The notes beneath the pieces were generated by a model. It saw only the letters and a program-made list of their open reading frames with translations. It was not told the origin of the DNA and searched no databases. A stretch of DNA of 39,583 nt from Spongiibacteraceae bacterium (GTDB lineage: Bacteria; Pseudomonadota; Gammaproteobacteria; Pseudomonadales; CAMLJR01), in NCBI GenBank assembly GCA_036502545.1, contig DASXYH010000219.1:1-39583 (forward strand), written 5' to 3'. Below, one piece after another: positions 142-39,282 of this stretch. The translations under genes were made by a program, and so were the position numbers. The stretch's first letter is position 1. Each line of letters begins with the position of its first letter.

Positions 142-415
142 GGAAACTCTGAATTAAGTGTTTTTGGTAAAGGCACGCTGTAGCAGAGCATGAGGCGCCG
201 GAAGGGATTCTCTTTTCCAGGACAAGAAGGTGATCTCATCGAAGCTGCGGTGCCATTCGTCAGCGGAGAAGCCGATGAATTCTACTAGGTCGATCACACC
301 GAGGCTATTTGAATGCTCGCCACGGAAGTCCTGAAAAAGAGAATCCCTTCCGGCGCCAACCCGCGGCGAGAACGGTGCGGTAATTAGAGTGGTAAAACAC
401 TTAATCAGAGTTTCT
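142..415 (+). mobile_element. MITE-like structured repeat, copy A (274 bp)
   Basis: Terminal inverted repeats are ggaaactctgaattaagtgttttt (142-165) and aaaacacttaatcagagtttct (394-415). The element is flanked by direct TAAG (138-141 and 416-419). The inner 30-nt inverted repeat, 194-223 vs 328-357, is 29/30 complementary. The element is homologous to 18515-18789 (inverted) and to 39089-39282. Confidence 0.8.
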
Positions 416-14023: not shown

Positions 14024-14221
14024 CGCTCCTGTCCCTCAATGTTGACCAAACTTATCCAAAATTGATTTTGGAAGAAATATTAGTCATTTACTCAATGCGA
14101 ATCTTTTCGCCAGCCGATGCAGTGCGAGATGCGACACCTTTAAGAGCGCGGTTTGATATTCGGAAGTGTCTTGCGCTGCTTCAGCGCATGTTGGCGTTAT
14201 TGGTCTTTTGAGAACGTCGAT

Positions 14222-14449
14222 TTAACTATCCAGCTCGATAGCATCGATCTTATCAGACATCGCCAATTCAAATCCTTTGATCAGCAATTCGCGCATCGAG
14301 AGACCTTTTGAAATCGCATGGAGCTTGAAGGCTTGCCTGAATTCAAAGCTGACCTTGAAATTCAACGACACCATGTGGTCCGGTTTGATATGCAATTCTC
14401 TTTCGAATATCTTACTTTCGAATAGGTCAATCGGTTTAAAGTTGTCCAT
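14222..14449 (-). CDS. ribbon-helix-helix (ParG/CopG-like) DNA-binding protein
   Basis: 75 aa. The segment VSLNFKVSFEFRQAFKLHAISKGLSMRELLIKGFELAM has the beta-strand/helix/helix pattern of RHH proteins. There is no adjacent ParA or toxin partner. Confidence 0.5.
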   Translation of the reverse strand: MDNFKPIDLFESKIFERELHIKPDHMVSLNFKVSFEFRQAFKLHAISKGLSMRELLIKGFELAMSDKIDAIELDS

Positions 14450-14516
14450 TTTTCACTCCCTCTGATCCCTTAATCTACCGCACAAATTACTTGTCAATGC
14501 ATAAAATAATTGGTGG

Positions 14517-14566
14517 GTCTCTGTGTCACTTTAAAAAATAACTGTAGAGTCTCTATGTCACTTTAA
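14517..14566. repeat. two 18-bp direct repeats upstream of the RHH gene (candidate operator or iterons)
   Basis: gtctctgtgtcactttaa (14517-14534) and gtctctatgtcactttaa (14549-14566) are 17/18 identical, with starts 32 bp apart. They lie 68-117 bp upstream of the RHH start. Confidence 0.6.
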
Positions 14567-14975
14567 TGACAATTTAACCAGCACTCTTCGATCTTAGAAA
14601 ATGAAAGTCTATATGAGGGCAATGGACTTGCAATAATAATAGCGCACTTGGAAAATAGATTTATAGGCGCCAGGAGATCATATTCACTAGAACTCTTTTT
14701 AGTCAATATTTTTATACTATGCATACGATTTATTTTTTGCATTATGCGCTGATTCTCAAAAATTTGAATTCGCAATTATCGGCGATCGCTTCGGCACAGT
14801 TGAAAATATTATTTTTGTCGGGTGCATGGTGAATATGCGTATTTAGCTGAAGTTTGACAATCTTGGGTTACATATTTAGTAAGCATGCACCGTGCTGTAT
14901 TGCTGAATGAATAACGCGATGGTTTATCTTCTTTTGCGAGAAAAGTGGTTAAAAAGAGAAACGTGTGATAGTTGA

Positions 14976-18468: not shown

Positions 18469-18514
18469 GATATGTCGCTCCGCTTAATGGCTGTTATCGA
18501 TTAGAAACTATTAT

Positions 18515-18789
18515 GGAAATTCTGATTAAGTGTTTTTGTTAGCCCGGCCCTTGCACCATTCTTGCAGCGGGGTGGCGCCGTTGGGGGTTCTCTTTTTCAG
18601 GACTTCCGTTGCGAGCATTCCGAAAGCTTCGATGTAGTCGGCCTAGCGGAATTCGACGACTTCTCCGCTGACGAATGGCACCGCGGCTTCGTTTAGATCA
18701 CCTTCTTGTCCTGAAAAAGAGAACCCCCAACGGCGCCTCATGTTCTGCTACAAGGTGCCATAAAAAGAAAACACTTAATCAGAGTTTCC
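18515..18789 (-). mobile_element. MITE-like structured repeat, copy B (275 bp, inverted relative to copy A)
   Basis: TIRs are ggaaattctgattaagtgttttt (18515-18537) and aaaacacttaatcagagtttcc (18768-18789). The element is flanked by direct TTAT (18511-18514 and 18790-18793). The inner 30-nt inverted repeat, 18574-18603 vs 18708-18737, is perfectly complementary. The core is the reverse complement of the copy A core. Confidence 0.85.
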
Positions 18790-18852
18790 TTATCAATTAG
18801 TGACTGCTATCGATTATGTTGATGTTTGTACGTTGAATATTTTTCAACAAAA

Positions 18853-28138: not shown

Positions 28139-28215
<77 letters not shown>

Positions 28216-28675
28216 ATTAAATCAACAAGTTACATATTTTTTTGTTCATCGAAATACCCCGATATTGAACTGGTGGTCCACCAGTGAGGCAAATCTCGCT
28301 GATTTCCACTTCCCTTTATCCCCTTAGTTCGCTGCATTACGTTTCCGTTTGTTGCCGGGGATTCGCGCCTCTGATCTTTTGCTTGGGCCTTGCGTAAACT
28401 CTATTGCCCAGATAGCCCCAACATGTATTCGCCATATTTGGGTGATTGTCTCTGCCGTTTTTTCTTCGCTCGATTTTCCAATTTCCCCCTTTGCAAGAAA
28501 TCGTTATGGCCCAGTATTACTATGCGTTTTTTGTCTAATTGGAGGCAATTGATATTGCGATGGGCGGAGATGTATAAAGGTTATTATTTGGTCAGAAGAG
28601 TAATTTTGAGATACCGAAGTGAAACGATGATTCTAGTTTTCTCAGAGGGGTGGTGATTGGTGGAGTGGGACGCAA

Positions 28676-29338
28676 ATGGACGCGGAGAATGTGAAATTTT
28701 GGTTGAAACTTGAAAAATGGTACGACACAGAAGCGGCATTGATTCTGATCGACGTGGATCCCCGACTTCATGCCAACGGAATGAAACCTTCCAAAAAAAT
28801 TGTGCGGGAAAAGTTTCCAACGGCAGCAGAATTATTGCTGATATTTGAGCGCAGCGATTTGCTGCCGCGCTACCCGGAAAAACAAAGCACCTGGCGATTT
28901 TTGGCGGCAGCTTACCGCGCAGAATGCTTAACAAAACCGCTGCTTTTACAGCACTTCGAAGCGTGGATGGTGGGAAATCACTTAGCGCAGGGCGAGCGAT
29001 TTAACGAGCGGACCGGGCTCGCTGTTCATGCCCAAAAAATCCTGCATAAATACCCCGCGATTGTCGAACAGTTTAGCGCGACTCGTGGCCTGCATAAATT
29101 ATCGTACGAAAATGACAATCTTAAAAAAACCATCGGCCTTTTGTTGTCCGCTTTTTTGCAGCAGCGACAATCCCATTTGTTAGGTACCATCGAACATCCC
29201 AATGTCAGCCAGATTGTAAAAGCGTTGCAGGCGCATTCGGCGGCGGTGAATCTTGATTCTGAGGGGTTGGGTAAAACATCACTGACGGAAAAAATCACAG
29301 CCGCGATCAAATATTTTCGCGAATCCAAAATGGAATAG
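28676..29338 (+). CDS. hypothetical protein (island cargo, no recognisable domain)
   Basis: 220-aa ORF with balanced composition. GGTGGAG lies about 9 nt upstream of the ATG. I recognise no family. Confidence 0.45.
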   Translation: MDAENVKFWLKLEKWYDTEAALILIDVDPRLHANGMKPSKKIVREKFPTAAELLLIFERSDLLPRYPEKQSTWRFLAAAYRAECLTKPLLLQHFEAWMVGNHLAQGERFNERTGLAVHAQKILHKYPAIVEQFSATRGLHKLSYENDNLKKTIGLLLSAFLQQRQSHLLGTIEHPNVSQIVKALQAHSAAVNLDSEGLGKTSLTEKITAAIKYFRESKME

Positions 29339-29586
29339 GGCGGTTGTTTATCGGTGTCGGCGTTTTCGTATTCCACAGTCACCGGTGGCGTAAAACTGCC
29401 AACAGATTCCGATTCAAAACTGCCGGCGACTTCAGTTAAAAGCAGCCACTCATCAAATTCAGCGACCTGCGGCTCTTCGGCCAAAGCCGCCGTCGGCCTA
29501 ACCATGAACTTTTGAAAACTCAATGTCTATTGTTGAGTTTCTGCATAACATCCGCGCCGTGCCGAAGTAGGGATTGATCCGACAAA

Positions 29587-31686
29587 CTAAAATCCCGCTT
29601 CACGCCAAATTAATGCAACTGCTGATCTGAAAAATCGGCTGCTGAGCGGCGACCAGCTCGCATCGATAGTCACGTTACCGCGCCAAATATAAGTATCCAG
29701 AAAATTATTTTCTTCGATTGGCTGCAGCGTGACACGGTATAACGCTTGCTCGGGATACAGCACGCCTGATTTTTCGCGCACAACGATATCGCCGCCGAAA
29801 CGATTAGAGAGTGCGGGTTCGGCCAGCGTGCGGCTCGCATCGGCATCGATACGAATCACACGCAATGTAATGGTTGGCGTTCCGGCATTATTGCCGTAGA
29901 AATGCGCGTGCGCTCCGGGCTGCAAATCCTTCGCGGCTTGTTCGTCGATATAAGCGATGACTTGGTGATTGCCTGGTGCAACCAGTGTCGCTAAGCGCTC
30001 TTTCGCGGTCACCCATTGGCCGGCGCTGAGTTCGGGTTCGATATCGCGGAGCACGCCGTTAAAAGGAGCTTTCGGTGTAAACCGCTCGCTCTGCGCCGTG
30101 ATGCTTTGAATTTCGGCAAGTGCAGCCGAGTTTTCCATTTGCAGCGATTGCCAATGCGCGCGCTGCTCGCTGTCAAAAGTACCGGCTTCTGCCAGCCACT
30201 GCGTTTGTTTTGCACGCGCTGCCAATTGTTGTGTGCGCATCTGCAATTTGGGTGAAGACATCTGTAAAATAATTTTCCCGGCATTGATGGTGTCGCCATT
30301 ACGGAAATTTATTTTCTCTATTTGCGCGCCTTCAGGAGCGTAAACAACCCAGTATTGTTGGGGTTGTAACAGTGCGGAAGCGTGAATTCGAGTTGGCAGA
30401 GGTACTGCAAACAGCAATAACACCGCAGCTAAAATCGCACCGGAAATAATACTGCGGCGACGCAATCGAATGACGCTCCATTTTTTGTGCCATACGATAA
30501 TTTCGCGCACAATCGGCAACGTAACAAATACACCGATTTCCACCGCAAATAAAACTATTCCCACCGCTTTGATAAAAAAATGATAAACCAGCGCGGCGAT
30601 GCCGAGAAATAACACGAGCCGGTAAATCCATATACCCCACGCAAACAAGATCAGCCAATGCTGTCGGCGCGGCGGAAAATACTCGGGCGGTTCTTCGCGC
30701 AAATCGAACAGCAGCTCGCGCAATTTCCAGCGTGCGAGCGCAAATGCGCGCGCGTGCAGATTCGGTATTTCGAGCCAGTCGGATAGCAAGAAATAACCAT
30801 CGAAGCGCATGAACGGACTGGCGTTGACCAGAATCGTGCTGATCCATGTCGTTGTAGCTAACAAAAATGCTGTAGCGCGCGGCAAACCTTCGGGTAGCCA
30901 TGCCCAAAAAAATAGTGCCCATGCGGCGATGGTGAGTTCGGTGATTACGCCGGCCGCCGCCACGGCGAGGCGCTCGCGTTTCCGGCGCAGCCGCCACACA
31001 TCGTTGGTGTCGGTGTACGCGACCGGCCACATCACGAGAAACGCAATACCCATGGTCGGCACACGACAACCATAACGTTTCGCGGTAATTGCGTGGCCGA
31101 GTTCGTGCGCGAATTTCACCGCGATCAGCGCAATGCCGTAACCGAGCAATCCTTGCAGACTGATGGTGTCGACCAGTGTCGCCGTAAAGCGATCCCAATC
31201 GCGCGCGATTTCAATAACGCCGACGATAAACGCGAAGAGCGTGAGCCAGCGAAATGTCGGTGTGAATAATGCGGCAAATAAAGGTGAGAATTTCGACAAC
31301 CACGCATCCGGTCGCCACAGCGGAATGCGAAAAAATAAATAGTTGTGCAACAACCAGGTGAGCTTCGAGCCGCGCTTGCGTGCCAGCCGTTCGGCCAAGC
31401 GCGAAGAGCTGCCGATAGCGGGTTGCAACAATTCGTTATCGGCAAAAAATTGCGCTACGTTGAGAACCGCTTGCGCATCGATATTAAGCGTTGTGTTTTC
31501 GCAGACTGCAGCAACGATTAATTCGGGCTCGCCTTTATCCCAATGCGAAAGAATTTCAAACGACGGCCAATCGATTTGAAAATACAAATTGCGCACGGGA
31601 TCGTGCAGTGTGTGTGTGGGCTGACCGTCGGCCAATGGCGGGCCTTCGAGCAGCGATAATTCCTGGCGCAGCGGTGGCAGTGCCAT
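29587..31686 (-). CDS. site-2 protease (peptidase M50) fused to a HlyD-like periplasmic adaptor domain
   Basis: 699 aa. The M50 zinc motif is FAHELGHAITAKRYG and the second motif is NASPFMRFDGYFLL, within multiple TM helices. The C-terminal half has a coiled-coil and barrel pattern (GDTINAGKIILQMSSPKLQ...APFNGVLRDIEPELSAGQWVTAKERLATLV) like HlyD/MFP adaptors. Confidence 0.7.
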   Translation of the reverse strand: MALPPLRQELSLLEGPPLADGQPTHTLHDPVRNLYFQIDWPSFEILSHWDKGEPELIVAAVCENTTLNIDAQAVLNVAQFFADNELLQPAIGSSSRLAERLARKRGSKLTWLLHNYLFFRIPLWRPDAWLSKFSPLFAALFTPTFRWLTLFAFIVGVIEIARDWDRFTATLVDTISLQGLLGYGIALIAVKFAHELGHAITAKRYGCRVPTMGIAFLVMWPVAYTDTNDVWRLRRKRERLAVAAAGVITELTIAAWALFFWAWLPEGLPRATAFLLATTTWISTILVNASPFMRFDGYFLLSDWLEIPNLHARAFALARWKLRELLFDLREEPPEYFPPRRQHWLILFAWGIWIYRLVLFLGIAALVYHFFIKAVGIVLFAVEIGVFVTLPIVREIIVWHKKWSVIRLRRRSIISGAILAAVLLLFAVPLPTRIHASALLQPQQYWVVYAPEGAQIEKINFRNGDTINAGKIILQMSSPKLQMRTQQLAARAKQTQWLAEAGTFDSEQRAHWQSLQMENSAALAEIQSITAQSERFTPKAPFNGVLRDIEPELSAGQWVTAKERLATLVAPGNHQVIAYIDEQAAKDLQPGAHAHFYGNNAGTPTITLRVIRIDADASRTLAEPALSNRFGGDIVVREKSGVLYPEQALYRVTLQPIEENNFLDTYIWRGNVTIDASWSPLSSRFFRSAVALIWREAGF

Positions 31687-31704
31687 CTCAGCCTCTCGTT
31701 TCCT

Positions 31705-32172
31705 TCATACACCAAGATACTGGCGCACAACCGCCAATGGGCGTCGCACCATCCAATAAATCAACGGTACGCGCGCGGCATAAAAAAGCTGTTCGACGAG
31801 GGAGTGGTCGCGAGTGATTTGCCTGATGCCGTGATCAGGTCGCCAGTGGTAGGCGCGGGAGTCGCCGACCCAAGCAATCTGAAATGAACGGGGCCCAGCA
31901 TGAGCGACAACAAGGGTCGAACCCATGCCACGGAGTTCTGACTGTGACTGAGAGCGTTCGATAATAGACTTGTGTGCTTCTAATGCGATGCCGACAAGAT
32001 CGGCACCACTCACATAAGTCCGGATAAAAGTGTCGACGACGATATGGCTCGCAACTTCACCGCCGGTATGTCCGCCCATACCATCAGCAATGACGGCCAA
32101 CCCGATTTCTTCATCGAAAAAAGTTGCATCTTCGTTGTGAGTTCGTTTATTTCCAGGGTGCGAGCCAGCCAT
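31705..32172 (-). pseudogene. PP2C-family Ser/Thr phosphatase, C-terminally truncated
   Basis: The N-terminal PP2C motifs are present: GNKRTHNEDA, VIADGMGGHTGGEVAS, GMGSTLVV and WVGDSRAY...ITRDHSLVEQL. The C-terminal metal-binding half (SDGL / DN.T motifs) is absent. The ORF ends 19 nt before the M50 gene start. Confidence 0.5.
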
Positions 32173-32330
32173 ATTTTTATTGATCCAGTGGCCATTGGTC
32201 CTCCCGGGCCCCGTGTGTAAAGGGCGGAGAGAAAGTATACCGCCATCGTGTACCAATGCCGTTAAGCTAGAGGGGTGCCCGGCGGGGGCGCTTTGGCTTC
32301 TCCGAGAGCTGTTTTTTGTGCGGTATTTTT

Positions 32331-32468
32331 TTATTCAGCTGTGTTGGTGAGAGATTCTGCAGTGGTAGTTTTTCGTTGCCGCTTTTTGCTTTGATTGAGC
32401 CGGTAACTGTCGCTGTTCATTTCCAAGACATGCACTTGATGCGTGAGTCGATCGAGCAGCGCGCTGAT
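32331..32468 (-). pseudogene. remnant of an IS21-family IstB-like ATPase (C-terminal about 45 codons)
   Basis: My translation gives ISALLDRLTHQVHVLEMNSDSYRLNQSKKRQRK...*. The segment LLDRLTH..HVLEMNG.SYRL is the characteristic IstB/DnaC-type C-terminus. An in-frame stop lies immediately upstream, and no start codon or N-terminal domain is present. Confidence 0.5.
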
Positions 32469-32534
32469 TTAAGCGCTCAGAAGCTGTCTAAACTTTTTAT
32501 CGCAGGGAATCGTGCCTGACGGATAACGACACTC

Positions 32535-32846
32535 CTATCGCGCACCAACAAGATCATCCTCACTTGCAACGTAACGCTTCACCTTGATCGACCGCGAATA
32601 CTTGCGCGCCTGCGCGAGATCAAAAGCCGTTTGCAGAGCAAGCCATCCTTCAGCCGTGCCGCCGAACGCTTTATCGAGGCGGATCGCCATTTCCGGTGAA
32701 ATGCCTGCCTTTTCATTCACAAGGTTGTTCAAGGCTTGGCGAGTCACGCCGAGGATTTCGGCCCCTTTCGTGACTGAAAGTCCCAAGGGCTCCAAGCAGT
32801 CAAAGCGTACCGAGGATCCAGGATGCGGCGGTTCTTTCATAGTCAT
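32535..32846 (-). CDS. higA: HigA-type antitoxin (XRE HTH)
   Basis: The sequence is MTMKEPPHPGSSVRFDCLEPLGLSVTKGAEILGVTRQALNNLVNEKAGISPEMAIRLDKAFGG. AGGAG lies 9 nt upstream of ATG 32846. The gene is immediately downstream of higB. Confidence 0.8.
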   Translation of the reverse strand: MTMKEPPHPGSSVRFDCLEPLGLSVTKGAEILGVTRQALNNLVNEKAGISPEMAIRLDKAFGGTAEGWLALQTAFDLAQARKYSRSIKVKRYVASEDDLVGAR

Positions 32847-32866
32847 TTCAATAGCTCCTGTGACGA

Positions 32867-33150
32867 TCAATGGTAATCGACCAAGTCAACGTCAAATACA
32901 TGGCCTCCTTCAAAGCGGAAGGTGATCCGCCAGTTGCCTGTCACCCAGACGGACCAGAAACCCTTAAGCTCTCCCTTGAGTGGATGCAGCTTCAAGCCCG
33001 GCAGGTTCATCACGTCTGGGCTGGTCGCGATATCGAGTCGCGCGATGATCCGTTCTATCTTAGGCATCATGTCTGCCGAGAGACCCTTGCGATCGGCCTT
33101 CTCGTGGAGTCGTTGAAGACCTTTGTGCCGGAAATTTTGGATCGATGCAT
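32867..33150 (-). pseudogene. higB: HigB-type toxin (RelE/ParE superfamily) with a disrupted 5' end
   Basis: The in-frame reading IQNFRHKGLQRLHEKADRKGLSADMMPKIERIIARLD...LKLHPLKGELKGFWSVWVTGNWRITFRFEGGHVFDVDLVDYH is a full HigB-like sequence. No ATG, GTG or TTG lies in frame upstream of 33070. The SD-preceded ATG at 33150-33148 is out of frame. Confidence 0.6.
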
Positions 33151-33194
33151 GCTCTCCCTCTCGATAGTTAGCGTATTATGACAAGTGACAGTTG

Positions 33195-34485
33195 TCAATG
33201 GTCTATCTGGCGATTATTCAGTAGTGCCACAGCAGCTGCCTTATGATTTGGCGACAAGTGCGCGTAACGCTGTGTCATCTCGATGCTTGAGTGTCCCAGC
33301 AACTCTTTTACGGTGTAAAGGTCAGCGCCACGCATGACGAGATTTGACGCGAAGGTGTGCCGAAGATCGTGGAATCGAAATGCGTTTATGTTTGCCGATT
33401 GGATGAGCGCGCGCCAAGCCGTATTGATATTGTCGAGTCGTTTACCCGTTACCGGCGATGGAAATACCAATTGTCCCGCGGTGACTTGGTTTTGTTTAGC
33501 CCAAGCGTTCGCTGTTGCAAAAGCAATGTCATTGAGCGGGACATGGCGTGTTCGATTATTTTTGGTTCCACGGCCACCGACGGCGGGAATCTCGCTACCA
33601 CGGACGGAAAGTATCCGGCGCTTTAGGTCGACATCATCCCAGCTCAAGTTGAATAACTCGCCGCGACGCAGCCCGGTATTGAGGGCGAGTATGACCATCG
33701 GCATTAAATAATCGGTATAGGTATTCTTGAAGGAATCGGGAGGCTCTAGATGACGCGCTGTGCACCATTCAATGTAACGCTGCCGCTCCGCACGCTGGTT
33801 GTTCTGGCGAGCCACCAGCGCGTCCATCAATTGGTTTTCTTCCTCAATCTCCAGGTAGCGGAAAATGCCGTTTTCATCCTCGGCTAATTTTTTAAATTTA
33901 GCGAGAGGATGACTGGCAATAATGTTCCACTCCAGCGCGCGATTGAGCATCGCTTTCAGGTAGGTAATCGGTCGATTAACGGTGGCGGGTTTGCGGTTTA
34001 TGTTGGATCTGCTCGTTGCGCCAACTGGTGATCAGCCGCGAGTCGAGACCCATGAGCGATTTGTCGGCCCAGGTATGGACGAATTTGGTTTCGAGCAACT
34101 GCGCTATTTGATCGCCGCTTTTCAGGTGAGCCAACAGGTACGGTTTGTACAGCTCGTCGAAAAATACTTTCAGTGTTTGCTGCCGCGCTTGTTCAGCGCG
34201 CGCCTTTTGCGCTTTCTTTTCGGCCTGCACATCGGTGCCGATTTTAACTTCAGCCGATTTGAGTTCGGCCAAATGCCGCGCTTGCACGGCAGTAATGACG
34301 CCATATTTACCCAGGGTGAACGCTTGTTTTTTGCCATCGGCATTGCGGTAGCGATAGGCAAAGCTCATGACCCCGCTGGGGCGCAGGATCAAACAAAAAC
34401 CCTTGACCTGCGAATCGTAGACTTCGACGATTTTATCGGCCGGGGAGAGGGCGGCGATGAGGCGGTCCGTGATCCGAGTACCCAT
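33195..34485 (-). pseudogene. P4-type tyrosine integrase, split by one frameshift
   Basis: The N-terminal ORF (33976-34485) carries the arm-binding DUF4102-like domain (VKGFCLILRPSGVMSFAYRYR). The C-terminal ORF (33195-33950) carries the catalytic residues (RRGELFNLSW, HDLRHTFAS, LGHSSIEMTQRYAHL). The C-terminal frame stays open upstream and reads RKPATVNRPITYLKAMLNRALEW. Confidence 0.8.
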
Positions 34486-35594: not shown

Positions 35595-37259
35595 TCAATC
35601 ATCCGCATAAATATCCCTATCCTTCGTCTCCGGTATAAAAACAATCCCAACAATAAAAGTCATTAACGCGCACACAGCCGGATACCACAAGCCAAAATAA
35701 ATATTACCGGTCGCGGCGACCATCGCGAAGGCGGAGGCGGGCAATAATCCGCCGACCCAGCCGCTGCCGATGTGATACGGCATCGACATCGCGGTGTAGC
35801 GAATGCGGGTTGGAAATAATTCGACGAGGGCGGCGGCGATCGGGCCGTAGGTCATCGCGGCGTATAAGCCCAATATCACGAGCAGCAACACCACCATCGG
35901 CCAATTGATTTTCGTGGCGTCGGCGTGGTCGGGATAGCCCGCTTGTTTAATGGCGGCGCTCATTTGCGTATTGAATGCGGCGAGTTGCGCGGCGAATTCT
36001 TCTTTCGATAATCCGGTGCCTTCGAAACTGTTGATCGTCGTGTCGCCGATTTTTATTGAGGCGATTGTTCCTGGCACGGCATTTTGATTGGTATAGCTGA
36101 CGCTGCTGCGCGCGAGAAATGCTTTGGCGATATCGCACGAGCTGGTGAATTGCGCGGTGCCGACCGGATTGAATTGAAACGAACATGTTTGTGGATCGGC
36201 GAATACCTGCACCGGCGCGTTTTGCTGCGCTTGTGCCAGCGCCGGGTTGGCGTTTTGCGTAATGGCTTTGAAGATTGGCATATAGCTAAATGCCGCGAGC
36301 AGACAACCGGTCATGATGATCGGTTTGCGGCCGAGTTTATCGGATAGCGCGCCGAATAAAACGTATAGCGGTGTTGTCAGCGCGACCGATATTCCGATCA
36401 ATAAATTTGCACTGAGTCCATCGACTTTCAATGTCTGCGTCAAAAAAAACAACGCATAAAATTGCGCGGTGTACCACGCGGTGGCTTGACCGGCGGTAAG
36501 GCCGAACAAAGCAAAAAACACCAGCTTTACATTACGCCATTCGCCGAACGTTTCGCGCAGCGGCGCCTTCGATGTTTTGCCTTCCGCTTTGATACGCAGA
36601 AATACCGGCGATTCGCTCAGCGATAAGCGAATCCATACCGAGATCGCGAGCAAAAATACCGAGATCAAAAATGGAATGCGCCAACCCCAATCCGCGAACA
36701 CTTCTTCACCGAGATATTTGCGTGCGCCGATGATGATGACGAGCGATAACAGCAATCCGACATTCGCGGTGGTTTGAATCCAGCCGGTATATAAGCCGCG
36801 TTTGCGTTGCGGCGCATGTTCCGCAACATATGTTGCCGCGCCGCCGTATTCGCCGCCGAGCGCGAGACCTTGCGCGAGCCGCAGCAATACCAATGCAATC
36901 GGCGCGGCGATGCCGATGCTGTGATACGAAGGCAGGCAGCCGACGAAAAATGTCGACAGGCCCATGATTATTATCGTGATAAGAAATGTATGTTTGCGGC
37001 CGACGCGATCGCCGAGCCGGCCGAATACCAGCGCGCCGAACGGGCGCACCGCGAAGCCGGCGGAAAATGCGAGCAGTGCAAAAATAAATGCGGCGGTTTC
37101 ATTCACGCCGGAAAAAAATTGTTTGCTGGTGATCGCGGCGAGCGAGCCGTATAAAAAGAAATCATACCATTCGAACATGGTGCCGAGCGCCGAGGCGAAA
37201 ATTACTTTGCGTTCGGCGCGCGTGATGCGAGTTGCTGCAGTCATTTCCAATTGTTGCAT
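35595..37259 (-). CDS. MFS transporter, metabolite:H+ symporter (MHS/ProP-like) family, paralog 1
   Basis: 554 aa. Motifs are FEWYDFFLYGSLA, GRLGDRVGRK and LGGEYGGAATYVAEHAP. A roughly 110-aa hydrophilic insert lies between late TM helices. An in-frame ATG at 37244 is an alternative start. Confidence 0.85.
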   Translation of the reverse strand: MQQLEMTAATRITRAERKVIFASALGTMFEWYDFFLYGSLAAITSKQFFSGVNETAAFIFALLAFSAGFAVRPFGALVFGRLGDRVGRKHTFLITIIIMGLSTFFVGCLPSYHSIGIAAPIALVLLRLAQGLALGGEYGGAATYVAEHAPQRKRGLYTGWIQTTANVGLLLSLVIIIGARKYLGEEVFADWGWRIPFLISVFLLAISVWIRLSLSESPVFLRIKAEGKTSKAPLRETFGEWRNVKLVFFALFGLTAGQATAWYTAQFYALFFLTQTLKVDGLSANLLIGISVALTTPLYVLFGALSDKLGRKPIIMTGCLLAAFSYMPIFKAITQNANPALAQAQQNAPVQVFADPQTCSFQFNPVGTAQFTSSCDIAKAFLARSSVSYTNQNAVPGTIASIKIGDTTINSFEGTGLSKEEFAAQLAAFNTQMSAAIKQAGYPDHADATKINWPMVVLLLVILGLYAAMTYGPIAAALVELFPTRIRYTAMSMPYHIGSGWVGGLLPASAFAMVAATGNIYFGLWYPAVCALMTFIVGIVFIPETKDRDIYADD

Positions 37260-37281: not shown

Positions 37282-38937
37282 TCAATCGTGCTGATAGATA
37301 TCGACGTCTTTGGTTTCGCGAATGCACAGCGTGCCGATGACTAGTGTCATCGTCGCCACCACAATCGGATACCAAAGACCGTAATAAATATCGCCGGTCG
37401 CGGCCACCATCGCGAATGCGGTGGTCGGCAAAAAACCACCGAACCAGCCGTTGCCGATGTGATACGGCAGCGACATCGACGAGTAGCGAATGCGTGTGGG
37501 AAATAATTCAACCAGAATGGCGGCGATCGGGCCGTATACCATCGTCACGTAAAGAACGAGGAGCGTCAGCAATACGATAACCATCGGTTTATTGATTTGC
37601 GCCGGATCGGCCTTGGCCGGGTAGCCCGCCGCGCTGACTGCATCGCCGAGTTGTTTGTTGAAGGCATCCGAGCGCTGCTTGAATTCTTCTTTGCTTAAGC
37701 TCGCGCCTTCGAAACTCTCGATGACGGTGTCGCCGATTTTCACCGAAGCCACCGCGCCTCGCGGCAATACATTGTTCGCATAATTCACGCTGTTTTTTGC
37801 CAGAAACGATTTGACGATATCGCACGAGTTGGTGAAACGCGTCTTGCCGACCGGATCGAATTGAAACGAGCATGCGACGGGATCGGCATTCACGACCACC
37901 GGCGCATTCGTCTGCGCGGTTTCGAGGGCGGGATTGGCAAAATGCGTGAGCCCTTTGAAAATCGGAAAATACGTCAGCGCGGCGAGCAGACAACCGGCCA
38001 TGATGATCGGCTTGCGGCCGATTCGGTCCGATAGTCCGCCGAAAATAACGAAGAACGGCGCCGCGATTAGCAGCGATATCGCGATATAAATATTCGCGGC
38101 CGCATCGTTAACCTTCAATATTTTGGTGAGAAAAAATAATGCGTAGAACTGGCCGGTGTACCACACGACTGCCTGACCAGCGGTAAGCCCGAACAGCGCA
38201 AGAATAACAATTTTCAAATTTTTCCATTGCCCGAACGATTCGCGCAGTGGCATTTTCGATTGCTTGCCTTCGGCCTTCATGCGTTGAAATGCGGGCGATT
38301 CGCTCAGCGAAAGACGAATCCACACCGAGATGGCCAACAGCAGCGACGACACTAAAAATGGCACGCGCCATCCCCAAGCTGCAAAATCATCTTCGCCGAT
38401 GAGCGTGCGCGTCAGCAGAATAACCAGCAACGATAAAAATAATCCCAGCGTTGCCGTGGTTTGAATCCAACTCGTGAACAGGCCGCGTTTACCGTGCGGC
38501 GCATGTTCCGCCACATAGGTTGCGGCGCCGCCGTACTCGCCGCCCAGCGCAAGCCCTTGCAGCAAACGCAGGCCGATCAAAATCACCGGTGCGGCGAGGC
38601 CGATCGATGCATATGACGGCAGGCAGCCGACGACAAAAGTCGATAGGCCCATGATCAGAATTGTGACGAGGAACGTGTATTTGCGTCCGACCAGATCGCC
38701 GAGCCGGCCAAATACCAAGGCACCGAACGGCCGCACGGCAAATCCAGCCGCGAACGCGAGCAATGCGAAAATGAATGCTGCGGTGTCGTTGACGCCGGAA
38801 AAAAATTGCTTGCTGATAATTGCGGCGAGCGAGCCGTACAGATAAAAGTCGTACCATTCGAATACGGTGCCGAGCGATGAAGCGAATACCACTTTGCGTT
38901 CGGCGTTGGTCATGATGGGCGTTTGCTGATTTTGCAA
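37282..38937 (-). CDS. MFS transporter, MHS/ProP-like family, paralog 2 (tandem duplicate)
   Basis: 551 aa, collinear with paralog 1 throughout. TTG 38937 is preceded by AAGGAG at 6 nt. An in-frame ATG at 38913 is an alternative start. Confidence 0.85.
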   Translation of the reverse strand: MQNQQTPIMTNAERKVVFASSLGTVFEWYDFYLYGSLAAIISKQFFSGVNDTAAFIFALLAFAAGFAVRPFGALVFGRLGDLVGRKYTFLVTILIMGLSTFVVGCLPSYASIGLAAPVILIGLRLLQGLALGGEYGGAATYVAEHAPHGKRGLFTSWIQTTATLGLFLSLLVILLTRTLIGEDDFAAWGWRVPFLVSSLLLAISVWIRLSLSESPAFQRMKAEGKQSKMPLRESFGQWKNLKIVILALFGLTAGQAVVWYTGQFYALFFLTKILKVNDAAANIYIAISLLIAAPFFVIFGGLSDRIGRKPIIMAGCLLAALTYFPIFKGLTHFANPALETAQTNAPVVVNADPVACSFQFDPVGKTRFTNSCDIVKSFLAKNSVNYANNVLPRGAVASVKIGDTVIESFEGASLSKEEFKQRSDAFNKQLGDAVSAAGYPAKADPAQINKPMVIVLLTLLVLYVTMVYGPIAAILVELFPTRIRYSSMSLPYHIGNGWFGGFLPTTAFAMVAATGDIYYGLWYPIVVATMTLVIGTLCIRETKDVDIYQHD

Positions 38938-39088: not shown

Positions 39089-39282
39089 GCGCGAAGAGGG
39101 GGTTCTCTTTTTCGGGACAAGAAGGTGATGTTATCGAAGCTGTGGTGCAATCGTCCCCGGAGAAGTCATCGAGTACTGCTAGGCCGACTACTCCGCGCTT
39201 TCGGCGTGCTTGCCACGGAAGTCCGGAAAAAGAGAACCCCCTCTTCGCGCAACCATCTCCGAGCGTGCGACGAATTCAGTGG
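39089..39282 (+). mobile_element. divergent or degenerate copy C of the MITE-like repeat (inner stem, core and right arm; no recognisable TIRs)
   Basis: The inner inverted repeat, 39089-39118 vs 39221-39250, is 29/30 complementary. The core is homologous to copy A in the same orientation. The right arm aaccatctccgagcgtgcgacgaattcagtgg is alignable to copy A 358-392. The terminal 'ctgattaagtg' motif is absent. Confidence 0.65.

Follow-up and report, generated by a model that had tools for sequence, protein, structure and literature searches.

Results

Gene content of the window and its host

The window, the whole 39,583-nt stretch of DNA that was analyzed, carries three copies (A, B and C) of a short repeated element. 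The copies lie in short spacers by gene starts, either 41-44 nt upstream of start codons or within an operon spacer. Copy A is 41 nt upstream of a minus-strand gene that starts at position 100. Copy B is 43 nt upstream of the start of the SDR gene, in a luciferase-SDR spacer that is compact in relatives, and copy C is flanked by an MFS gene and a thiolase gene that diverge from each other. Element copies come within about 140 nt of one end of the window and about 330 nt of the other; the contigs of close relatives are only 1-5 kb long.

The named relatives of the window thrS belong to Spongiibacteraceae, Halieaceae and Litorivivens, and on these sequences the host is assigned to the Cellvibrionales, within the gammaproteobacteria. 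A host in the Verrucomicrobia is contradicted by the Spongiibacteraceae and Halieaceae thrS relatives. One record labeled Verrucomicrobiaceae (P0148) has a thrS 89% identical to that of the window, and this label, like the same label on the contig L013 described below, is probably wrong.

Two tandem paralogue pairs are present in the window, Rieske/VanA-type oxygenases at 755-1840 and 1879-2970, and MFS sugar-type transporters at 35595-37259 and 37282-38937 (73-76% DNA identity, 1687-nt spacing). A gap of about 950 nt (14024-14975, about 38% GC) between the Na+/H+ exchanger and ABC/TOBE (ModC-like) genes has no ORF of at least 80 aa. A tRNA-Pro(GGG) gene at 28139-28215 is followed by strain-variable DNA (region 28139-34485), which holds minus-strand HlyD/M50 (29587-31686), PP2C (31705-32256) and HTH_3 (32535-32870) genes and a tyrosine integrase in two adjacent ORFs, one with the arm-binding domain (33976-34485) and one with the catalytic domain (33195-33950). 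Relatives carry other cargo downstream of ihfA-like and merR-like genes, and in L054 the integrase at this place is intact. Such an arrangement suggests a hotspot for integration or an island in decay. The split phage-type integrase (33195-34485) of this island beside tRNA-Pro is the sole recombinase in the window, and the scan of about 30 window ORFs found no transposase, RAYT or reverse transcriptase.

The inner inverted arms

Each copy contains a unit of 162-164 nt (A, 194-357; B, 18574-18737, in the opposite orientation; C, 39089-39250) in which two 30-nt inverted arms bracket a core. A 20-mer chosen as an anchor has three occurrences in the window, where 0.01 would be expected. The parts of the three units are as follows.

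194-223, unstranded: copy A inner arm, left; pairs 29/30 with 328-357
224-327, unstranded: copy A core, 104 nt
328-357, unstranded: copy A inner arm, right; pairs with 194-223
18574-18603, unstranded: copy B inner arm, left; pairs 30/30 with 18708-18737
18604-18707, unstranded: copy B core, 104 nt; 80-84% identity to the other cores
18708-18737, unstranded: copy B inner arm, right; pairs with 18574-18603
39089-39118, unstranded: copy C inner arm, left; pairs 29/30 with 39221-39250
39119-39220, plus strand: copy C core, 102 nt; two 1-nt deletions relative to A and B; 75-80% identity to the other cores
39221-39250, unstranded: copy C inner arm, right; pairs with 39089-39118

Arms are written as the left arm followed by the reverse complement of the right arm. 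The copy A arms read GGCGCCGGAAGGGATTCTCTTTTCCAGGAC / GGCGCCGGAAGGGATTCTCTTTTTCAGGAC, with a single mismatch at position 24 where C stands opposite A. The left and right arms of copy B are alike (GGCGCCGTTGGGGGTTCTCTTTTTCAGGAC, 30/30). The copy C arms read GCGCGAAGAGGGGGTTCTCTTTTTCGGGAC / ...TTCCGGAC, with a single mismatch at position 26 where G stands opposite G. A preliminary description of this DNA had reported 30-nt inverted arms around cores of 102-104 nt in three copies, with complementarities of 29/30, 30/30 and 29/30. Its arm sequences were correct, the cores measure 104, 104 and 102 nt, and the complementarity values are confirmed. Its statement that eight of the first nine positions differ between B and C, every one of them mirrored on the partner arm, is exact. 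It had also counted four left-arm differences between A and B, all compensated; four are indeed mirrored, but the actual count is five (positions 8, 9, 10, 14 and 24), and the fifth is the C·A mismatch of copy A itself.

In about 347 kb (the window plus related loci), perfect inverted repeats no shorter than 18 bp, with spacers no longer than 300 nt, were confined to the element copies, a single small palindromic repeat unrelated to them and the center of the fold-back in the metagenome contig L019 described below. An unlike palindromic insert of about 70 nt lies between the cytochrome c' and HXXSHH genes in L048 (4403-4495) and also in L050, L051, L053 and L055. In the L048 insert, a 47-nt spacer separates the halves of a perfect 23-nt inverted repeat (TCCCCTCTCCCCGCGGGAGAGGG); inserts of this type occur in some strains of a related species and are absent from L046, L047, L049 and L052.

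The inner repeat lies within a MITE

The preliminary description did not extend beyond the hairpin. The hairpin is nested in a transposable element, as shown by outer terminal repeats, by target duplications and by an empty site in a relative. Copies A and B are complete and have the following outer features.

142-415, plus strand: copy A, complete 274-bp MITE; TAAG duplications at 138-141 and 416-419
18511-18514, unstranded: copy B target-site duplication, left, TTAT
18515-18789, minus strand: copy B, complete 275-bp MITE; 22-bp outer inverted repeats and a 4-bp duplication; core runs opposite to A and C
18515-18536, unstranded: copy B outer terminal inverted repeat, left, GGAAATTCTGATTAAGTGTTTT; one T/C difference from its partner, unmirrored
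18768-18789, unstranded: copy B outer terminal inverted repeat, right
18790-18793, unstranded: copy B target-site duplication, right, TTAT

The 22-bp outer repeat GGAAAYTCTGATTAAGTGTTTT is found at both ends of A and B and partially in L019, and the outer repeats are 230-250 nt apart in the element. The element end sequence is GGAAACTCTGATTAAGTGTTTT, with 4-bp target duplications that are perfect in A (TAAG), B (TTAT) and L019 (CTAA, on both sides). Copies A and B are 80.6% identical over 278 nt. The outer repeats of copy A differ by an unmirrored extra A and an end mismatch. The outer flanks of copy C have diverged beyond showing terminal repeats or a duplication.

An empty site was found in the Logan contig L033, which encodes an SDR protein 97% identical to that of the window. 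The luciferase-SDR spacer is 118 nt in L033 versus 384 nt in the window. Removal of copy B and one TTAT from the window gives an end-to-end alignment with the L033 spacer, which has a single ATAA where copy B is inserted. This clean empty site establishes that copy B is a recent insertion and that the 275-bp unit is a MITE, a non-autonomous element with 4-bp duplications in AT-rich intergenic DNA. The size of 274-275 bp without a transposase gene is that of a MITE, and the ORFs within the element are 20-47 aa long, apart from one 80-aa chance ORF across copy C. These data define a previously undescribed MITE family from soil Cellvibrionales.

Copies beyond the window

The sequence GGAAGTCCNGAAAAAGAGAA was used as the query for copy searches of genome-contig and metagenome collections. 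The genome-contig scan gave one true copy among 15 matches (L013), and the metagenome scan gave one true copy among 17 matches (L019). No element copies were found in two viral scans and in PLSDB, or in about 280 kb around the thrS or SDR gene of relatives (79-97% identity). The sample therefore comprises five copies, all from non-orthologous loci.

L013 (CAZWBA010000002.1, a MAG contig) has the element at 2419-2582 with arms paired 30/30 and carries a fourth outer-arm sequence, GGCGAGGGAAGGGG. Its internal L and R segments are about 71% identical to those of A, and its outer repeats are degenerate remnants. In copy D (L013 2372-2630), the degenerate outer-repeat remnants contain both the stop codon that ends the preceding ORF (2380-2382) and the start codon (ATG, 2626) of the MFS gene that follows, and the insertion appears to have reshaped both neighboring gene ends.

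The arm boundaries are the same in all five copies. The inner 30-bp repeat is at or near perfect Watson-Crick complementarity, and the outer 14 bp of the arm drift freely among copies. The inner 16 bp are identical at 14-16 of 16 positions versus 6-11 of 14 for the outer 14 bp, and conservation is 88-100% for the inner 16 bp and core edges versus 43-79% for the outer 14 bp. Since the inner 16 bp and core edges are better conserved than the outer 14 bp and the flanks, the pattern suggests a separate sequence-specific constraint at the stem-core junctions.

The sharp boundary between a constant inner and a variable outer half, and the G-rich, palindrome-like character of the outer halves, would also suit a shorter element with 16-bp ends (TTCTCTTTTTCAGGAC...GTCCTGAAAAAGAGAA) that inserted into the centers of pre-existing GC-rich palindromes, the outer 14 bp being host hairpin. 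A, B, L013 and L019 are, however, homologous outside the arms, both in the L and R segments and in the outer repeats, and this shared sequence traces the arms to a single ancestral composite and not to separate insertion events. The outer halves can be recognized as variants of one sequence, GGCGCCGGAAGGGG, and there is no direct duplication around the 136-bp or the 164-bp unit. Insertion into differing host palindromes is largely refuted by the shared flanks and is very improbable.

L019 (1-6959) is a fold-back contig in which the first ~3.47 kb are the reverse complement of the last ~3.44 kb (93.5% identity, 190 gaps), a pattern consistent with either an amplification chimera or an uncorrected long read in which an adapter was missed. 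Its arms are noisy, and both sides are consistent with GGCGCCGGAAGGGG.... Compared with A, B and L013, the L019 core is flipped with respect to the neighboring L and R segments, and both passes of the long-read contig agree on this orientation. The L019 flanks are closest to those of A, so the core flip looks recent. The inversion rests on one noisy contig, maybe from an amplified library, and may have arisen by template switching in vitro.

Two core orientations relative to the flanks would be expected if the MITE carried an inverton, in which the conserved inner 16 bp would serve as recombinase binding sites and flipping of the 104-bp core would switch some activity on or off at each insertion site. 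The sequence conservation of the core-adjacent arm halves and the location of the copies in promoter-proximal spacers are in line with this proposal. The contrast in orientation was, however, seen only between loci (L019 versus A, B and L013), and a consensus scan of A, B and C and their surroundings found neither a sigma-70-like promoter nor an intrinsic terminator. No recombinase gene is adjacent to the copies, the split island integrase being the only one in the window, although an invertase could be encoded at a distant site. Site-specific recombination also leaves the perfect complementarity of the variable outer 14 bp unexplained, and 104 bp leaves very little length for synapsis unless bending factors assist. 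An inverton of this kind is unlikely. It is similarly improbable that the inner unit is a mobile, self-maintaining invertible module whose 104-bp segment flips at appreciable frequency through a dedicated recombinase at the arm-core junctions or through host recombination. If it were, many promoter-proximal sites would gain a heritable two-state switch, and arm homogenization would be a by-product of flipping.

Mirrored changes in the arms

In the four clean copies (A, B, C and L013), 118 of 120 arm pairs are strict Watson-Crick pairs and none is G·U; the two exceptions are the C·A in A and the G·G in C. Mirrored changes were scored relative to the majority arm, GGCGCCGGAAGGGGTTCTCTTTTTCAGGAC. 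Copy A has a mirrored G14A. Copy B has a mirrored GAA>TTG at the adjacent positions 8-10. L013 has a mirrored CC>AG at the adjacent positions 5-6 together with A26C, and in copy C a block of mirrored substitutions is accompanied by a length change. Of the seven simple mirrored changes in A, B and L013, five are transversions, and adjacent changes form two clusters. The arms thus show about 15 mirrored changes versus two unmirrored ones.

In the five-copy alignment, 97.3% of arm cells are paired, and sliding the partner arm by 1-3 columns lowers pairing to 47-63%. Pairs that change on both sides number 11 of 30 across the five copies versus 3.8 ± 1.5 in shuffled alignments, and none of 500 shuffles reached 11. 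This bears out the view of the preliminary description that the arms are not simply conserved in sequence; the covariation extends to a fourth independent arm variant in L013. That description had also raised a division of the arm differences into a few clonal subfamilies. Private mirrored changes are present in every copy (n = 5), so the arm differences are, as far as five copies allow, not merely those of two clonal subfamilies. All 11 covarying pairs are within the 30-bp stem, and no covariation was detected in the predicted core helices.

Coding and RNA candidates for the core

Open frames occur on both strands of the core, e.g., ...EFDDFSADEWHRSF... and ...GFSFSGQEGDL.... A protein-coding core was rejected. 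Substitutions fall 8/10/10 over the codon phases with no phase bias, copy C has two 1-nt deletions (net -2 nt, a frameshift), and copy B has an in-frame stop. A six-frame concatenated profile of the core searched against 5.8 billion proteins gave no match at E ≤ 0.01.

Rfam at the gathering threshold identified only tRNA-Pro in the window, and a permissive Rfam scan of copy B gave only a chance miRNA hit (E = 2.2). The two Rfam scans returned no family for the element. The lack of an Rfam match and of covariation inside the core means that a stable structured RNA gene is not supported. Other structured candidates were rejected as well. The R''/R' motifs of an integron attC site (RYYYAAC ... 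GTTRRRY) are absent from the A, C and L013 arms, the stems are perfect without bulges, and there is no cassette array. A retron msd lacks a reverse transcriptase among the window ORFs scanned, and a terminator lacks a T-run.

The strong covariation could also arise if the hairpin itself were selected as a single-stranded DNA or RNA structure, with mismatched copies purged or failing to spread. By analogy, such a hairpin might be needed for mobilization of the element, as proposed for REPIN hairpins, or might benefit the host as an extended RNA duplex within 5' or intercistronic UTRs, e.g., an RNase III processing or stability signal as in Correia or bcr1. The common arm boundaries of the five copies and the higher conservation of the inner 16 bp and core edges are consistent with such selection, as are locations 41-44 nt upstream of start codons or in an operon spacer, from which the copies are probably transcribed. 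Precedents exist in the compensatory changes of REPINs (PMC3116915) and the maintained RNA structure of bcr1 (PMC3184786). Against selection on the hairpin stand the strict Watson-Crick pairing of the 120 clean pairs with no G·U and the predominance of transversions, clusters and indels among the mirrored changes. The effect of one mismatch on the stability of a 30-bp stem is negligible, A and B are oppositely oriented to their downstream genes, and the core has neither covariation nor an Rfam family. Finally, the outer repeats and duplications indicate a transposon of the cut-or-copy DDE type, and we know of no role for an internal hairpin in DDE-type transposons. Selection on the hairpin is a possible but doubtful explanation.

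Discussion

On balance, the arms appear to have been homogenized at the DNA level by arm-to-arm copying, and the compensated changes to be mainly a mutational footprint that does not prove selection on an RNA. Copying at the DNA level is favored over selection on RNA because pairing is strictly Watson-Crick with no G·U in the clean pairs, because transversions, adjacent clusters and indels make up most of the mirrored changes, because the outer repeats of the same element are uncorrected, and because the core is inverted relative to the flanks in L019. Transversions cannot pass through a wobble intermediate. The whole-element fold energy is about -134 to -138 kcal/mol, and with a predicted fold near -134 kcal/mol a single mismatch in the arm stem should be barely visible to selection on stability. 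The preliminary description had offered two causes for the mirrored changes, maintenance of a DNA or RNA structure and intramolecular templated repair. These same lines of evidence favor templated repair, and the part of the first cause that would make the element a stable RNA gene is not supported.

In the proposed mechanism, a change in one arm would be copied onto the partner arm. The copying could proceed through replication template switching between the arms (quasi-palindrome correction) or through recombination or gene conversion between the arms with heteroduplex repair, and the same processes would occasionally invert the spacer. One study describes arm homogenization, spacer inversion and multinucleotide changes by template switching at inverted repeats (PMC8604942). 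Template switching can maintain hairpins and yield multibase compensatory mutations (PMC8794818), and perfect inverted repeats in Proteobacteria are preferentially restored (PMC5941160). L013 has decayed outer repeats yet 30/30 arms, which favors correction in place over evolution in master copies, although these two histories are not rigorously separable with five non-orthologous copies.

Several considerations weigh against correction at the DNA level. The 104-nt spacer is long for an intramolecular route, and classic quasi-palindrome correction is documented mainly at short spacers. The identical arm boundaries and the conserved inner half look more like constraint than like a purely mutational process. 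Selection on the hairpin at the level of the element, by analogy with REPINs, would likewise give mirrored changes.

Full compensation in a stem is commonly read as the strongest evidence of RNA function, and here a replication or recombination footprint fits better. The repeat is carried by a selfish element. If a full copy set confirms this, the family could be used to measure the rate and distance of inverted-repeat homogenization in bacterial genomes. The presence of copies beside gene starts and in an operon spacer matters for annotation and possibly for the expression of neighboring genes.

REPINs and Bacillus bcr1 provide earlier examples of compensated hairpins, and the MITE described here is another such family. 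REPINs, the REP doublets mobilized by RAYT, are also short, non-coding, intergenic and multi-copy, with inverted conserved arms, a less conserved spacer and the potential to form a long hairpin, and compensatory changes across their hairpins are common (PMC3116915). The present MITE differs in having outer terminal inverted repeats and 4-bp duplications, both of which REPINs lack. Its arms are without the REP-type internal stem, no RAYT gene is present in the window, and its copy number seems low, no copy occurring in about 280 kb from relatives whose thrS is 89-93% identical.

The bcr1 repeats of the Bacillus cereus group, Correia/NEMIS and ERIC are also MITE-sized, with short direct duplications, insertion polymorphism between strains and an extended double-stranded fold. 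In bcr1, base-pair compensatory changes maintain an RNA structure (PMC3184786). The present family has no sequence similarity to these repeats. Its predicted compensated helix is an internal, strictly Watson-Crick 30-bp repeat nested in uncompensated outer repeats. Invertons such as fimS and the Bacteroides promoter invertons share the arrangement of inverted repeats around a short segment and the occurrence of both orientations relative to the flanks. The element differs from them in that no promoter cargo and no cognate recombinase were found in the window, and its inverted repeat rides on a transposable element.

The outcomes known for quasi-palindrome correction and template-switch mutagenesis, namely arm homogenization, multinucleotide mirrored changes and spacer inversion, all agree with the changes in the present element (PMC8604942, PMC8794818, PMC5941160, PMC7202029). 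Template-switch mutagenesis is a mutational process of general occurrence, unlike an element family, and most descriptions of it concern shorter arms and spacers. In the present case, template switching would operate repeatedly across the 104-bp spacer and between the 30-bp arms of a family of mobile elements.
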